A stretch of DNA of 50,514 nt from a virus (lineage: Duplodnaviria; Heunggongvirae; Uroviricota; Caudoviricetes): the IMG/VR virus record IMGVR_UViG_2534681773_000022, one strand, 5' to 3'. A model generated the notes under the pieces. It was not told where the DNA came from, did no database searches, and saw nothing but the letters and a program-made list of their open reading frames with translations. Below are positions 4,363 to 16,285 of the stretch, piece by piece (position 1 is the first letter of the stretch; every line of letters begins with the position of its first letter). Made by a program: the position numbers and the translations under genes.

Positions 4363-4924
4363 TATCGCGTCCTCAACAATGAATTTTGTGATGCGGTGCC
4401 TGGTGCCTCCAGGTGACGTTAACCAGTTAACAATTAACGCCGGATACAGAGAATCCACCCATAACACTGTTTTTGGTTTTAACTGTTCCGCGTGCGCTCA
4501 GCCGCATTCACCACATCACAAAATTCACTTTAAAAAGGGCGGCAGAGCAGTCACGGAGTAAAACTGATACCGCCAAACGTCACCAGAAAATTGATAACAG
4601 AGGGCGTTGCAGCGGGGTTGTCACTTAAGCGTATGGTCAACCTGACAACCCGGTGTCCTCAACGGGGGAAGGAATAACCCCGCCATACTTACCGCCGCGC
4701 CATTTCGCGGATTGCCACAACCGGAAACGCACGGTCGACGAAAATTTAACGACAGGCTATCTATGAACCAGCTACCTCGCCGGGCGCTTTCGCGTTATGG
4801 TCTGACTTTTCAGGGAAATATCCTTTCAGTAAACTGTCAGTGCCGGATGCTCACCCGTGTCCGGCGCACGCACTCCACCTCACCCGTGGAGAACTCCTTA
4901 ATCACCAACCCTCAGGAGGGTGAA

Positions 4925-6554: not shown

Positions 6555-6581
6555 TGTTGCGTGTTTTTTGGAGTTCATTCG

Positions 6582-6905
6582 ATGAAAAAAGATAACTATT
6601 CATTCAAACGAGCTTGTGCTGTTGTCGGTGGGCAATCAGCAATGGCTAGGCTTTTAGGTGTATCTCCTCCAAGCGTAAATCAATGGATCAAAGGTGTACG
6701 TCAGTTACCTGCTGAGAGATGTCCTGCGATTGAACGAGCAACAAAAGGTGGTGTCCTGTGTGAAGAACTTCGTCCTGATGTTGATTGGACATACTTACGA
6801 CGCTCGTCATGTTATTCGCAGAATATGTCGATGAAGCAACCAAATGACGAAAACGATCATACCCGAAGCATCAAGAGGCAAATGATTCATGAAAATCAAA
6901 CATGA
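6582..6905 (+). CDS. ydaS: Cro/CI-type HTH regulator, YdaS-like
   Basis: Translation (MKKDNYSFKRACAVVGGQSAMARLLGVSPPSVNQWIKG...) matches the remembered Rac-prophage YdaS; GGAG RBS; first rightward gene. Confidence 0.75.
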   Translation: MKKDNYSFKRACAVVGGQSAMARLLGVSPPSVNQWIKGVRQLPAERCPAIERATKGGVLCEELRPDVDWTYLRRSSCYSQNMSMKQPNDENDHTRSIKRQMIHENQT

Positions 6906-10922: not shown

Positions 10923-11792
10923 ATGACCACTATTACCAAAGAACGTATTGAATTGTTCATTAAAAATCCGCTTGAAAACGGGCTTACCCGTGGTGAACAA
11001 ATGGAACTGGCACGGATTGCGCTGGCATCGCTGGAAGCAGAGCCGGTGGCAAAGATTATAGCTCATTACCCATTAGGGGTTGACGTAGGCAAACAAAAAT
11101 TTGTACAGGCCATTAGAGAGCTTCCTGACTTTGGCGGATATCTATTTGCCGCCCCTCCAGCGCCGATAGTGCCGGAAGAAATGTATTGGCAGGATGCGCC
11201 AGTTGAAGGCAGCAGCAAAGCGGCTGCATACGCTACAGGCTGGAACGATTGCCGCGAAGCCATGTTTCAGTCCGGAAACTTTCGGGAAAGCAAGAATTCG
11301 TCAACCAATAATTTTCGGGAAATCCCGGAAGCGTCAACCAGCTCTCCGGTAACTCCGGCTCTTCTGCCTGGTGGTTTCACCATTGAGGAGGCGAAGGAAT
11401 TACATGAAGACCTGGTACGCAGCCACATAAGCAAGGCCTTAAGTGGCGAAAAGATGAAAAAGAAAGATCGCGATGCTGATTTGCGCTGGATTCATGGCGT
11501 TATAGTTCAGGCAGCGTGGTTTGTAAAAGCATCACTGGAGCAGAATGCACTATCGGGCAACTCTCCGGCAACTCCGGATGGTTGGATAAGCTGTAGTGAG
11601 CGAATGCCGAATACCAAAACAGCCGTTCTTGTTGCCGTGGAGTTTGACAGGAAAGGTGACTGGCGAATGAAATGGGCTACTTACATCCCCGGGCATCCTG
11701 ACGCTAATGATGGGTGGATAATTCCTGGTGCGTCGTGGAAACCGTCACACTGGATGCCGCTACCAGAACCGCCGCAGGAGGTGAATCAATGA
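10923..11792 (+). CDS. Hypothetical phage protein, C-terminal DUF551-like domain
   Basis: 289-aa ORF; the C-terminal Trp-rich segment (...WIIPGASWKPSHWMPLPEPP) resembles DUF551 as remembered. Confidence 0.5.
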   Translation: MTTITKERIELFIKNPLENGLTRGEQMELARIALASLEAEPVAKIIAHYPLGVDVGKQKFVQAIRELPDFGGYLFAAPPAPIVPEEMYWQDAPVEGSSKAAAYATGWNDCREAMFQSGNFRESKNSSTNNFREIPEASTSSPVTPALLPGGFTIEEAKELHEDLVRSHISKALSGEKMKKKDRDADLRWIHGVIVQAAWFVKASLEQNALSGNSPATPDGWISCSERMPNTKTAVLVAVEFDRKGDWRMKWATYIPGHPDANDGWIIPGASWKPSHWMPLPEPPQEVNQ

Positions 11793-11872
11793 GCTGGCCT
11801 GAAGCATTAACAACGGTAGGAATTGCGATGGCGGTGGCGCTGGTGGTGTATTCGATTTGCCGCTGGGGATAA
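11789..11872 (+). CDS. Possible small hydrophobic peptide (27 aa)
   Basis: ATG overlapping the upstream stop; MSWPEALTTVGIAMAVALVVYSICRWG is a single transmembrane-like helix. Too short to be sure. Confidence 0.25.
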   Translation: MSWPEALTTVGIAMAVALVVYSICRWG

Positions 11873-11879
11873 AAACGGT

Positions 11880-11907
11880 TTGCGGGAAAAGGAGAGTTAA
11901 GTAGAAT
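11880..11907 (+). promoter_or_regulatory. Candidate hok/mok promoter (-35 TTGCGG, 16-bp spacer, -10 TAGAAT)
   Basis: Hexamers at 11880-11885 and 11902-11907; the predicted 5' end (GCAGCGGGTGCTTGAGG) is complementary to the mRNA 3' end. Confidence 0.45.
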
Positions 11908-11989
11908 TGCAGCGGGTGCTTGAGGCTATCTGTCTCAGGCATGAACACCAAAAGGCAGATAGAGAAAAGCCCCAGTTAACATTACGCGT

Positions 11990-12060
11990 CCGGCAAGACG
12001 CTTAACATTAATCTGAGGCCATATCTATGCTCTACACACGTAGGTTAGCCTCTTACGTGC
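11990..12060 (-). ncRNA. sok: Predicted Sok-like antisense RNA region (position inferred only)
   Basis: Type I hok/sok loci encode a short antisense RNA over the mok start and leader; no promoter was located with confidence. Confidence 0.25.
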
Positions 12061-12239
12061 CGAAAGGCAAGGAGAAGCAGGCTATGAAGCAGCAAAAGGC
12101 GATGCTAATCGCCCTGATCGTCATCTGTTTAACCGTCATTGTGACGGCACTGGTAACGAGGAAAGACCTCTGCGAGGTACGAATCCGAACCGGCCAGACG
12201 GAGGTCGCTGTCTTCACAGCTTACGAACCTGAGGAGTAA
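12027..12239 (+). CDS. mok: Mok: in-frame N-terminally extended reading frame that enables hok translation
   Basis: 70-aa ORF ending at the hok stop, mirroring the mokC/hokC arrangement. Confidence 0.55.
   Translation: MLYTRRLASYVPKGKEKQAMKQQKAMLIALIVICLTVIVTALVTRKDLCEVRIRTGQTEVAVFTAYEPEE
12084..12239 (+). CDS. hok: Hok/Gef-family type I toxin (51-aa membrane peptide)
   Basis: MKQQKAMLIALIVICLTVIVTALVTRKDLCEVRIRTGQTEVAVFTAYEPEE has the Hok-family hallmarks (N-terminal TM helix, conserved Cys, C-terminal AxFxAYE); AAGGAGAAG RBS. Confidence 0.85.
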   Translation: MKQQKAMLIALIVICLTVIVTALVTRKDLCEVRIRTGQTEVAVFTAYEPEE

Positions 12240-12307
12240 GAGACCTGGCGGGGGAGAAATCCCTCGCCACCTCTGATGTGTCAGGCATCCTCAACGCACC
12301 CGCACTT

Positions 12308-12336
12308 AACCCGCTTCGGCGGGTTTTGTTCTTTTT
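12308..12336 (+). terminator. Intrinsic terminator of the hok mRNA (CCCGC-TTCG-GCGGG hairpin + T-tract)
   Basis: GC stem with a UUCG loop followed by TTTTGTTCTTTTT; the preceding bases pair with the mRNA 5' end. Confidence 0.7.
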
Positions 12337-12379
12337 GTGAAAAAAATTCCCTTAAAGGAGATTTTTTTAACTAAAAAGG

Positions 12380-12407
12380 TTTACTTTGCTTTCGTATATG
12401 GTAAATT
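12380..12407 (+). promoter_or_regulatory. Candidate promoter of the XRE/ImmA operon (-35 TTTACT, extended -10 TGgTAAATT)
   Basis: Extended -10 TG-n-TAAATT at 12399-12407 with a -35-like hexamer 16 bp upstream; the same GGTAAAT motif recurs at the PR'-like promoter. Confidence 0.4.
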
Positions 12408-12483
12408 TTAGGAATTAGAATTTAAGCGCCCATCAGGCTTGCGTTAGGCAAGTCTGCTAAATCAACAAATTGAGGATAAAATC

Positions 12484-12843
12484 ATGGCACTCACTGAATT
12501 CGGTAAGGCCGTTAGAAAAGCGAGGATCGATACTGACAGTACTCTTCTGACTATGTCTCAAGAACTGGGCACTACGCCAGCGTTTCTTAGCGGTTTAGAA
12601 ACTGGTAGCAAAAAAATACCTCTGAAGTGGGTTAAGAAGATTGATTCTTACTTCAAGGCCAAAGGTGTAGAAATTGAAGGGTTACAGGAGTTAGCGGCAG
12701 TTGCGAATGACTCAGTTCCAGTAAACGGTTTGTCTCAGCAACAGAAAATGCTTGTAGCGGGATTCGCTAAGTCGCAGTTTACGCCGGAACAGCTAAAGAG
12801 TTTTGCAGATTTATTGCAAAAGATTAATAACAATGAGGGGTAA
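12484..12843 (+). CDS. XRE-family helix-turn-helix transcriptional regulator
   Basis: 119-aa ORF with an N-terminal HTH (LTMSQELGTTPAFLSGLETG); followed 2 bp later by a metallopeptidase gene. Confidence 0.7.
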   Translation: MALTEFGKAVRKARIDTDSTLLTMSQELGTTPAFLSGLETGSKKIPLKWVKKIDSYFKAKGVEIEGLQELAAVANDSVPVNGLSQQQKMLVAGFAKSQFTPEQLKSFADLLQKINNNEG

Positions 12844-12845
12844 TT

Positions 12846-13322
12846 ATGTATCAAATGAGAGGTAACAGGGTGTCACCGATGCAAGAAGAAGAAATAGCCT
12901 ACAGAGCTATAAACTTCTGTAATGCTATTGGTCTTACAGCCTCAAAGCGCAAAAGAAAGCGTTATGATATGTTCTTTGAAAGCCTGTCAATTTATGGGGT
13001 TACTCTTGACGTCAGGACCGACAAAGAGTGGGAGGCTCTGACGTATGATCTAACTATCGGACATTGTGACCCCGCTTCTCTAACAATTACGGTTCCCAAT
13101 AAAATATATGTGAATGCTTGCCTTGGGGAAGAGCATGCACTTGCTGTTATCTTCCACGAGCTAGGTCATTTGCTTCTTGGACACAAAGCAGTTTTACACT
13201 TTTCAGTTAAAGAACCTACTCGTATTGAGGATGCAGAATGGCAGGCAGATACATTTGCGGATATCGTACTGGAAACAATTGGCGTGAGAACACAACAGAT
13301 GTCGTTCGATTTTTATATGTAA
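12846..13322 (+). CDS. ImmA/IrrE-type zinc metallopeptidase (HEXXH motif)
   Basis: 158-aa ORF with HELGHLLLGH, the size and motif context of COG2856 peptidases that pair with XRE regulators. Confidence 0.65.
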   Translation: MYQMRGNRVSPMQEEEIAYRAINFCNAIGLTASKRKRKRYDMFFESLSIYGVTLDVRTDKEWEALTYDLTIGHCDPASLTITVPNKIYVNACLGEEHALAVIFHELGHLLLGHKAVLHFSVKEPTRIEDAEWQADTFADIVLETIGVRTQQMSFDFYM

Positions 13323-14033: not shown

Positions 14034-15080
14034 GTGCGGGTATTACTTCGACCTGTTCTGGTACCGGAACTCGGGCTGGTGATCGTTAAGCCGGGCCGTG
14101 AATCCATGCCGGTATTCCACAATACCCGGGTACTGGTGGAGCCGGAACCGAAAAGCATGCGTAATCTGTCGTCCGGGGTCGTTCCTGCCGTTCGCCAGCC
14201 GCTGGCGGAGGATAAATCATTACTGCCATTTTTCAGCGACGAACGAGTGATTCGTGCTGCTGGTGGCGCTGGCGCATTGTCTGACTGGTTACTGCGCCAT
14301 GTTAAATCCTGCCAGTGGCCACACGGCGATTATCACCACAGTGAAACCGTCATTCACCGTTATGGTACCGGCGCAATGGTGTTGTGCTGGCACTGCGACA
14401 ACCAGCTGCGCGACCAGACCTCCGAATCACTCGGGCAACTTGCTCACCAAAACCTGTCTGCATGGATGATTGACGTCATACGCCATGCAATGAATGGCTC
14501 GCAGGAACGGGAATTATCGCTGGCTGAATTATCCTGGTGGGCGGTCCGCAATCAGGTGGCGGACGCGCTACCGGAAGCGGTATTACGTCGTTCGCTGGGG
14601 TTGCGTGCGGAAAAAATCCGCTCAATGTACCGTGAAAGCGACATCGTACCGGGAGAGCAGACCGCCACCAGCATACTGAAGCAGCGCACAAAAAATCTTG
14701 CGCCGCTGCCTCACGCCCACCAGCAAAACCCGCCACAGGAAGAGACGGTGGTCAGCATTGCCGTTGATCCTGAGTCTCCGGAATCTTTCATGAAACGACC
14801 TAAACGTCGCCGCTGGGTTAACGAGAAATACACACGCTGGGTGAAGACACAGCCGTGTGCGTGTTGTGGTAAGCCAGCCGACGATCCCCATCACCTGATT
14901 GGTCATGGTCAGGGCGGAATGGGGACAAAATCTCACGATATTTTCACGCTACCGCTGTGTCGGGAGCATCACAACGAGCTTCATGCGGATCCTCTGGCGT
15001 TCGAAGAAAAGCATGGTTCTCAGGTTGATTTAATTTTTCGTTTTCTTGATCACGCCTTTGCAACTGGCGTGCTTGGGTAA
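14034..15080 (+). CDS. DUF968-family phage protein (YdfU-like)
   Basis: 348-aa ORF, GTG start after GGAGGT; C-terminal Cys/His cluster (CACCGKPADDPHHLIGHG...CREHHNELH); sits upstream of rusA and Q as in Qin-type prophages. Confidence 0.6.
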   Translation: MRVLLRPVLVPELGLVIVKPGRESMPVFHNTRVLVEPEPKSMRNLSSGVVPAVRQPLAEDKSLLPFFSDERVIRAAGGAGALSDWLLRHVKSCQWPHGDYHHSETVIHRYGTGAMVLCWHCDNQLRDQTSESLGQLAHQNLSAWMIDVIRHAMNGSQERELSLAELSWWAVRNQVADALPEAVLRRSLGLRAEKIRSMYRESDIVPGEQTATSILKQRTKNLAPLPHAHQQNPPQEETVVSIAVDPESPESFMKRPKRRRWVNEKYTRWVKTQPCACCGKPADDPHHLIGHGQGGMGTKSHDIFTLPLCREHHNELHADPLAFEEKHGSQVDLIFRFLDHAFATGVLG

Positions 15081-15092
15081 AAGAGGTGACTG

Positions 15093-15467
15093 ATGCTCAT
15101 AGATTTGGTTTTACCTTACCCGCCGACGGTGAACACTTACTGGCGACGCCGTGGCAGCACATATTTTATCTCGGAGGAGGGAAAGCGTTATCGCCGGGCT
15201 GTGGCGCTTATTGTTCGCCAGCAGCGGCTGAAATTAAGCCTGTCCGGAAGGCTGGCGATAAAGGTGATTGCAGAGCCACCGGATAAGCGTCGTCGCGACC
15301 TGGACAATATTCTGAAAGCACCACTGGATGCGCTGACGCATGCCGGACTTCTCATAGACGACGAGCAGTTTGATGAAATCAATATTGTGCGCGGTCAGCG
15401 CGTTCCTGGGGGGCGGCTGGGCGTGAAGATTTACCCCATAATGCTTGAAGGGCAGGTCAAAAAATGA
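15093..15467 (+). CDS. rusA: Holliday-junction resolvase RusA
   Basis: 124-aa ORF with the RusA catalytic core (...RRRDLDNILKAPLDALTHAGLLIDDEQ...); nin-region position just before Q. Confidence 0.85.
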   Translation: MLIDLVLPYPPTVNTYWRRRGSTYFISEEGKRYRRAVALIVRQQRLKLSLSGRLAIKVIAEPPDKRRRDLDNILKAPLDALTHAGLLIDDEQFDEINIVRGQRVPGGRLGVKIYPIMLEGQVKK

Positions 15468-16285
15468 AACTGGAAGATTTACCGAAATACTACTCCCCAA
15501 AATCCCCCGGCCTGACTGATGCATCGGCCTCAACGTCGAAAGATGCGCTGAGTATCACTGATGTGATGGCCGCGCAGGGCATGACACAGAATCGGGCTGA
15601 GATGGGGTTTTCTGCGTTCCTTGGGAAAATGGGCATTAGTATGAATGACAGAGAGCGGGCAACAGAATTGCTGACAGAATATGCACTCAGTCGGTGTGAT
15701 CGCGTGGCGGCGTTAAGAAAACTCCCGGCAGAAATAAAACCGGCAGTGATGCGTATTATGGCTTCGTATGCGTTTGAAGATTATGCCCGCAGCGCGGCGA
15801 GCAAAAAACAGTGCTCCTGCTGTCACGGAAAAAAATTTATTGAAAGCGAGGTTTTTACAAACAAGATCCAGTATCCGGATGGTAAGCCGCCGGTATGGGC
15901 AAAGTGTACGAAAGGTGTGTATCCGTCTTACTGGGAAGAATGGAAAAAAGTCAGGGAGGTGGTAAAAGTTGCCTGTCCGGAGTGTGGCGGAAAGGGTGAG
16001 GTTTCCACCGCCTGTAAGGATTGCCGTGGGCGTGGTGTCGCCATTCATCGTGAAGAGTCGGTAAAACGTGGTATGCCTGTTATCAGAGACTGCCAGCGTT
16101 GTGGTGGTCGTGGCTGTGAAAGACTACCATCAACGGAGGCATTTAATGCCATATGCAAAGTGACGAGTGCTATCACGCTTGATACGTGGAAAAAATCAGT
16201 GAAACGCTTTTACGATACGTTGGTGGTTCGGTTTGACATTGAAGAGGCATGGGCGGAGCGGCAGTTAAAGAGGGTAACGCGATAG
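15464..16285 (+). CDS. Late-gene antitermination protein Q (long, zinc-finger-rich type)
   Basis: 273-aa ORF translationally coupled to rusA (ATGA); three CxxC-GG(K/R)G motifs; immediately upstream of a PR'-like promoter and terminator. Confidence 0.75.
   Translation: MKLEDLPKYYSPKSPGLTDASASTSKDALSITDVMAAQGMTQNRAEMGFSAFLGKMGISMNDRERATELLTEYALSRCDRVAALRKLPAEIKPAVMRIMASYAFEDYARSAASKKQCSCCHGKKFIESEVFTNKIQYPDGKPPVWAKCTKGVYPSYWEEWKKVREVVKVACPECGGKGEVSTACKDCRGRGVAIHREESVKRGMPVIRDCQRCGGRGCERLPSTEAFNAICKVTSAITLDTWKKSVKRFYDTLVVRFDIEEAWAERQLKRVTR

Follow-up and report, generated by a model that had tools for sequence, protein, structure and literature searches.

Evidence for an intact hok/mok/sok type I cassette in the nin-equivalent region of a lambdoid Escherichia coli prophage

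Background

The hokW/sokW locus of Sakai prophage 5 (Sp5), an Stx2 phage, was studied experimentally by Takada et al. 2021 (PMC8621323). HokW proved to be toxic. The sokW RNA produced from its own promoter neutralises the toxin, partly by way of RNase III and Hfq; when that promoter is mutated, protection is lost. Upon induction of the prophage with mitomycin C the sokW RNA is lost in a RecA-dependent manner, after which HokW is found in the inner membrane. Deletion of hokW/sokW from Sp5 has no effect on growth and gives a phenotype after induction only: growth arrest sets in about 40 min later and phage release is halved. For the hok mRNA of plasmid R1 a folding model is available, which is summarised in PMC9841398. 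On a larger scale, a 2026 preprint (bioRxiv 10.1101/2025.08.07.668861) has catalogued 44,248 Hok homologues and reports hok genes to be enriched about four-fold in prophages.

Here we analyse a related locus at positions 11880-12336 of the virus record IMGVR_UViG_2534681773_000022 (Caudoviricetes), a stretch of 50,514 nucleotides that is referred to as the window. The locus is very probably an intact and self-contained hok/mok/sok type I cassette that belongs to the hokD/hokW lineage and forms a moron in the nin-equivalent region of a lambdoid E. coli prophage. A complete hok/mok locus inside a nin-like region had been proposed for these coordinates from the letters of the sequence (the original prediction). 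All elements of such a locus are indeed present, and the proposed setting is borne out by the synteny from the replication genes to rusA/Q. What had not been recognised is that the element was already annotated and studied: the cassette is known, and a close homologue has been the subject of experiments.

Results

The window is a lambdoid (Rac/Qin-like) prophage of E. coli. Upstream of the cassette the plus strand encodes Cro/YdaS (6561-6905), YdaT, an HTH_36 replication protein and a DUF977 protein, and downstream follow DUF968 (14034-15080), RusA (15093-15467), the antiterminator Q (15464-16285), a DNA methylase and tRNAs. Close relatives are annotated with the same gene arrangement around the cassette. 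Since the cassette lies between the replication genes and rusA/Q, it occupies the nin-equivalent position of lambda. It is located inside the early-right operon and has the same orientation as the operon.

At least 17 complete E. coli chromosomes contain the 457 bp of the cassette without a single change. Related copies were found in 4939 of the 5426 genomes and in 102 phage records, and the exact Hok and the exact 70-aa Mok sequences are each present on at least 1000 contigs. In other phages the matching stretch starts at query position 1-18 and extends to 432-457. The genes flanking the cassette vary among prophages; the upstream genes in two E. coli genomes (L002 and L065), for instance, differ from those of the window. 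A site in the nin-equivalent region, a (predicted) promoter and a terminator of its own and variable flanks are thus combined in one element, as in a moron, and the cassette behaves as an independent unit. Automated annotation of identical copies is restricted to 'hokD' and omits mok, Sok and the RNA elements; the coordinates of these features given in Table 1 complete that annotation.

Near-identical hok loci (96-100% peptide identity, and 97% DNA identity for the phage hit H1) were also encountered under labels other than E. coli, with L007, L011, L039, L045 and L052 involved. The labels are Actinobacillus phage, Veillonella, Xanthomonas, Acinetobacter, Haemophilus and Candidatus Scatousia. 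The genome records concerned are for the most part metagenome bins or contigs shorter than 3 kb, and the off-label loci (H1 and the five L loci just named) probably represent E. coli contamination or mis-binning.

Several other features of the window deserve mention. Directly upstream of the cassette, at 11789-11872 (+), lies an ORF for a hydrophobic peptide of 27 aa (MSWPEALTTVGIAMAVALVVYSICRWG), with AGGAGG 8 nt upstream and an ATG that overlaps the stop of the DUF551 gene. Its relatives (73-96% aa identity) are found 5' of hok in other prophages, behind different genes. The ORF carries no annotation in the 933W record and in the two automatically annotated genomes L002 and L065; the exact peptide is listed as 'putative prophage protein' in E. 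coli 042 and PCN033. Directly 3' of the hok terminator are genes for an HTH protein (12484-12843, +) and an ImmA/IrrE (Peptidase_M78) metalloprotease (12846-13322, +). The G+C content of this stretch is 0.37-0.45 against 0.50-0.56 around it, and the pair gives weak PADLOC matches to HTH_VI, CapH and CapP, the regulator pair of CBASS systems. Further RNA genes in the window are DicF (4537-4588, -), two copies of STnc100 (18386-18579 and 18855-19043, +), IS009 (49225-49422, +) and two tRNAs (17959-18117, +) located 3' of the methylase gene.

Table 1. Features of the hok/mok/sok cassette, in coordinates of the window
Feature	Position	Strand	Basis and remarks
hok promoter -35, TTGCGG	11880-11885	+	Likely; read from the sequence, 16 nt 5' of TAGAAT
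hok promoter -10, TAGAAT	11902-11907	+	Likely; followed by 6 nt to G11914
Full-length hok mRNA	11914-12335	+	About 420 nt; ends predicted (Rfam position 1; terminator and T-run)
tac element, GGGUGCUUGAGG	11914-11925	+	5' end; pairs with 12289-12301 in the minimum-energy fold, covaries with fbi
ucb (anti-Shine-Dalgarno) box, AAAGCCCCAG	11966-11975	+	CCCC at 11970-11973 pairs with mok GAGG
mok Shine-Dalgarno, GAGG	12015-12018	+	8 nt 5' of the mok ATG; inside the Sok-complementary stretch
mok ORF	12027-12239	+	70 aa, in frame with hok
hok Shine-Dalgarno, AAGGAG	12069-12074	+	Read from the sequence; paired with 12052-12056 in the full-length fold
hok CDS	12084-12239	+	51 aa plus stop; Pfam HOK_GEF, PHROG 251, identity to K-12 HokD
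UACG motif at Tyr47 codon	12222-12225	+	Possible TadA A-to-I editing site (Tyr to Cys), putative
G+C-rich 3' UTR stem-loop	12247-12268	+	Likely 3' end protector of the processed mRNA
fbi element, CCUCAACGCACCC	12289-12301	+	Minimum-energy fold, covariation, duplex energy
Intrinsic terminator	12308-12335	+	Hairpin 12308-12325, then T-run
Sok RNA	12035 to 11965	-	71 nt, predicted; transferred from the 933W sokW misc_RNA
Sok promoter -35, TTGCCT	12070-12065	-	Homology; 17-nt spacer to -10
Sok promoter -10, TAACCT	12047-12042	-	Homology; 6 nt to the Sok start

The 51-aa peptide, which the original prediction had assigned to the Hok family, matches Pfam HOK_GEF (PF01848) with E=1.2e-23 and 82.9 bits (gathering cut-off 22 bits) over all 42 profile positions, and matches PHROG 251 'MokW-like host killing' with E=2.8e-33. 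No residue distinguishes it from HokD/RelF of E. coli K-12. Around the Tyr47 codon the 40 homologues share the sequence T-A-C-G-A-A, whose positions are either invariant or conserved in at least 90%. A UACG motif, in the account of the 2026 preprint, allows TadA A-to-I editing to Cys and so a disulfide that full toxicity requires; by analogy the Tyr47 codon of the window hok is a possible editing site.

For comparative purposes we collected a homologue set of 61 loci (one genome per species), to which the 933W locus and an R1-type IncF plasmid locus were added. The 40 distinct transcripts from this set form the alignment A1. An in-frame Mok of 70 aa, as in mokC/hokC, had been proposed and is present. 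The aligned mok ATG opens an ORF in 38 of the 40 homologues, and both frame and length of this ORF differ. In most homologues mok is an in-frame extension of Hok; it runs in another frame in L016-L018, L034, L038 and L049, and comprises 19 codons only in L024, L025, L047 and L058. Such a variable frame is in keeping with a function of the translation of mok and not of its protein product.

Upstream of mok, the start of the reported locus at 11880 coincides with the -35 hexamer of the likely hok promoter. In the aligned homologues a TAnAAT-like hexamer is found 6-7 nt ahead of the GGG at the 5' end, and the spacing in the R1-type locus is the same (TATGAT-6 nt-GGCGC). A scan of 11700-12500 with the sigma-70 consensus reported neither the hok nor the Sok promoter and gave on the plus strand only 12002-12031. 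As this generic scan missed both promoters, homology was used to position them, and like the two RNA ends of this copy they are putative.

The 5' end of the mRNA was set with the help of Rfam. Model RF01794 matches 11914-12089 (+) with 117.1 bits (gathering score 59 bits) over model positions 1-157 of 157; its position 1 falls on 11914 and its last positions on the hok AUG. RF01794 carries the name 'sok antitoxin' and yet is sense to the hok mRNA, so that automatic annotation would place a 'Sok' on the wrong strand and make it too long. We considered the match as a Sok gene and rejected this reading: with its span from the 5' end of the hok mRNA to the hok AUG, the model describes the hok leader and not Sok.

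On the other side of the gene, the G+C-rich stem-loop in the 3' UTR corresponds to the last stem-loop of truncated R1 hok mRNA (PMC9841398). Its two helices (17 and 18) are 78-97% paired in the 40-sequence alignment and show compensatory changes. A second Rfam hit in this region, isrK at 12248-12329, reaches 27 bits against a gathering score of 50 and was judged to be a generic hairpin-plus-terminator resemblance.

A Sok antisense RNA had been expected on the other strand over the mok start. It can now be placed, together with its promoter, as a prediction from the 933W annotation and the R1-type locus. In the 933W record sokW is a 71-nt RNA that begins 8 nt inside mokW, and the same length is stated in PMC8621323. 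933W shows the very same -35 and -10 hexamers at the same 17-nt distance, and in the R1-type locus the promoter reads TTGCGC-17-TATCCT. All 40 aligned loci show TTGNNN at the -35 position (TTGCCT in 22, TTGACC in 16, TTGCTT and TTGCGC in one each) with a spacer of 17-18 nt. At the -10 position TAnnCT is found in 29 of them; the other 11 read ACTCTA (9) or TACCTT (2), which is partly due to a 1-nt alignment gap. The generic scan missed the Sok promoter because its -10 hexamer matches only 3 of the 6 consensus positions. The predicted RNA spans the mok Shine-Dalgarno and start codon, and folds into a long hairpin that is preceded by a single-stranded 5' tail and followed by a U-run (-29.7 kcal/mol, z=-4.7). 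All sequence features of a putative cis-encoded Sok over the mok ribosome site and start, with its promoter in the 5' region of mok, are present and conserved in position; for the Sp5 homologue transcription of the antisense RNA has been demonstrated (PMC8621323).

The two ends of the hok mRNA can pair with each other. The original prediction had pointed to this complementarity between GCAGCGGGTGCTTGAGG and CCTCAACGCACCCGC: the pairing stands, but the motifs are located at 11909-11925 and 12289-12303 instead of about 11912-11928 and 12288-12302. The tac and fbi elements within them form 12 pairs with one bulged C. Folding of the full transcript, which had been named as a check, retains this helix in the minimum-free-energy structure of 11914-12333, at -173.2 kcal/mol (z=-6.4) and with none of 100 shuffles as good. 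The duplex between the first 13 nt and the 68-nt 3' UTR has an energy of -21.5 kcal/mol, compared to -14.1 +/- 2.3 for dinucleotide shuffles of the UTR; the observed energy was reached by 7 of 2000 such shuffles.

Disruption of the pairing in homologous loci had been named as a finding that would refute the proposal. Among the 40 homologues, standard pairs are formed in 89% of the tac-fbi cells, a count that is lowered because the distal half of the helix is shifted by one column in sequences without the bulged C, against 40-54% if the 3' partner is slid by 1-3 columns. At pair 6-434 of A1, for example, U-A occurs in 24 sequences and U-G in 3, while 12 carry a compensatory change to C-G. The column shift was resolved by duplex folding of each sequence separately. 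A duplex of 11-13 pairs with -16 kcal/mol or better is then kept in 38 of 40 loci, with compensatory changes such as GAGA/UCUC in Photorhabdus and GAAG/CUUC in Citrobacter, and is lost only in L020 and L051. For the predicted mRNA structure as a whole 85.7% is paired (38-46% when slid), and 42 pairs have changed on both sides. A conserved fold-back pairing for the hok family was reportedly published by Gultyaev, Franch and Gerdes in 1997.

In the fold of the full-length mRNA both Shine-Dalgarno sequences are paired, that of mok with the CCCC of the ucb box, and the mok and hok ribosome sites are accordingly predicted to be buried. The ucb of R1 is found at the same position as the box in the window (PMC9841398). 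When the 3' end is truncated the fold of the 5' end changes: unconstrained folding gives a local 5' hairpin, unlike the tac/ucb stem of the R1 model. This hairpin is similar to the metastable one that has been described in nascent hok mRNA.

Discussion

The following mechanism would fit the anatomy of the cassette if it works according to the R1 paradigm. The promoter at 11880-11907 would give rise to a stable hok mRNA of about 420 nt, in which the 5' tac pairs with the 3' fbi. In this closed form the ribosome sites of mok and hok would be buried, permitting neither translation nor binding of Sok. Slow trimming of the 3' end up to the stem-loop at 12247-12268 would remove fbi and cause the 5' end to refold, thereby exposing the mok ribosome site and the Sok target. 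As long as the short-lived Sok RNA of 71 nt is synthesised it would pair across the mok ribosome site and start codon, block translation of mok and hence of the coupled hok, and mark the duplex for RNase III. Once Sok synthesis stops, Hok would be made and inserted into the inner membrane, and the cell depolarised or killed. The arrangement of the elements, the conserved pairing and the buried ribosome sites of the fold belong to the observations on this locus. We infer the RNA ends, the 3' processing and the half-life of Sok from close homologues, and by the same analogy the window Hok would be toxic and neutralised by Sok.

Decay is common in the hok family, as the two homologues with a broken tac-fbi helix and the leaderless hokD of K-12 illustrate, and according to work cited in the 2026 preprint the chromosomal hokA, hokB and hokC gave no post-segregational killing and were suggested to be inactive. 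One could therefore ask whether the window copy is likewise a non-functional relic, as several chromosomal hok loci are. We consider this highly improbable and rejected it, as every element is intact: the promoter-like hexamers, tac, ucb, the mok ribosome site and ATG, the hok ORF, the 3' stem-loop, fbi and the terminator. The perfect identity of the 457 bp in at least 17 genomes and the collinearity with the 933W copy of hokW/sokW, a locus that is active in Sp5, point in the same direction.

More difficult is the question of what the cassette does for its prophage. The original prediction asserted an addiction or abortive-infection role, which is unsupported. The trigger that releases Hok is probably prophage induction, or else loss of the element. 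[quoted passage not shown] Of all parts of our interpretation this one is the least certain, and it is put forward tentatively; the locus for which that role was demonstrated has another position and belongs to another phage. A prophage addiction module, in which loss of the prophage leaves the stable hok mRNA behind while the unstable Sok disappears, so that the cell dies and the lysogen is stabilised, seems rather unlikely to us. It would agree with an anatomy that equals the plasmid-stabilisation system of R1 element for element and with the enrichment of hok genes in prophages. Against it count the failure in post-segregational killing of hokA, hokB and hokC, as relayed by the preprint, and the Sp5 deletion, with its phenotype confined to the period after induction.

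Exclusion of other phages is, in our judgement, a doubtful explanation too, and somewhat less probable again. Here an infecting phage would shut off host transcription, deplete Sok and so release Hok. In the summary given by PMC8621323, R1 hok/sok on a high-copy plasmid lowered the plating of T4 by 42% and the size of its plaques by about 85%, and prophage morons often carry defence genes. That effect of R1 is modest, however, and depends on high copy number. Moreover, hok is not enriched near defence systems (2026 preprint), and a search of PADLOC-DB with Hok (E<=0.01) gave no match, although that library may simply not include Hok.

Returning to the lysis role, the position of the cassette suggests a more specific version of it, which is speculative and which we regard as quite improbable. 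After induction, antiterminated read-through from the early promoter would collide head-on with the convergent Sok promoter and silence Sok; hok in the nin region would then be an induction-coupled lysis helper and not an addiction or defence module. If true, such silencing would explain the RecA-dependent loss of Sok RNA seen for hokW/sokW. Beyond correct annotation the significance of the locus is small. Still, a copy in the early-right operon makes a convenient test case for the role of prophage hok genes, be it as lysis helper, in addiction or in phage exclusion.

Comparison with known hok systems

The counterpart in 933W and Sp5 (VT2-Sakai) is annotated as mokW/hokW/sokW and shares 93.5% DNA identity with the window copy over 95% of the 457 bp. 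The order of the elements is the same and the Hok peptides are 92% identical. The setting differs: the 933W locus is situated close to the right-hand end of its genome, is read from the opposite strand of the record and falls outside the nin-equivalent region, whereas the window copy lies inside it. In addition, the homology ends just after fbi (L001 1925-1960 against window 12304-12335), and 933W lacks the terminator hairpin that is present in the window and in K-12. Three base differences are observed around the Sok start, at 12032, 12033 and 12039.

The hokD (relF) locus in Qin of K-12 is nearly identical to the window locus at the DNA level from the hok Shine-Dalgarno (approximately 12069) through fbi and the terminator. 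It is a 5'-truncated copy (L066 1520-1960 against window 12069-12335) in which relE sequence (relB-relE) replaces the leader. With relB-relE in place of the leader, it has no tac, Sok target, mok start or Sok promoter. Judged by its sequence, the window locus is the complete form of the locus that survives in K-12 as the hokD remnant; it shows K-12 hokD as it would have been before relBE replaced the leader.

Hok/mok/sok (parB) of R1/IncF has in common with the window cassette the 5' end GG(G)YGCUUGAGG, an in-frame mok, the position of the Sok promoter, the G+C-rich 3' stem-loop, and fbi followed by a terminator. Differences are found in the leader, whose alignment is gap-rich outside the conserved boxes, and in the coding region, which differs at many positions; HokW, the 92% identical relative of the window peptide, has 44% identity to R1 Hok (PMC8621323). 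In R1 the 5' hairpin insert is longer and the hairpin of the Sok target shorter. Its replicon is a plasmid and its role plasmid stabilisation, whereas the window copy is prophage-borne.

Finally, in the chromosomal hokC/mokC (gef) Mok is an N-terminal in-frame extension of Hok, as it is in the window. The tac-fbi pairing is kept in these loci (L024-L032), with G-U wobbles. Peptide identity to the window Hok is about 80%, the Sok-target hairpin is shorter, and the locus is chromosomal instead of being carried by a prophage.
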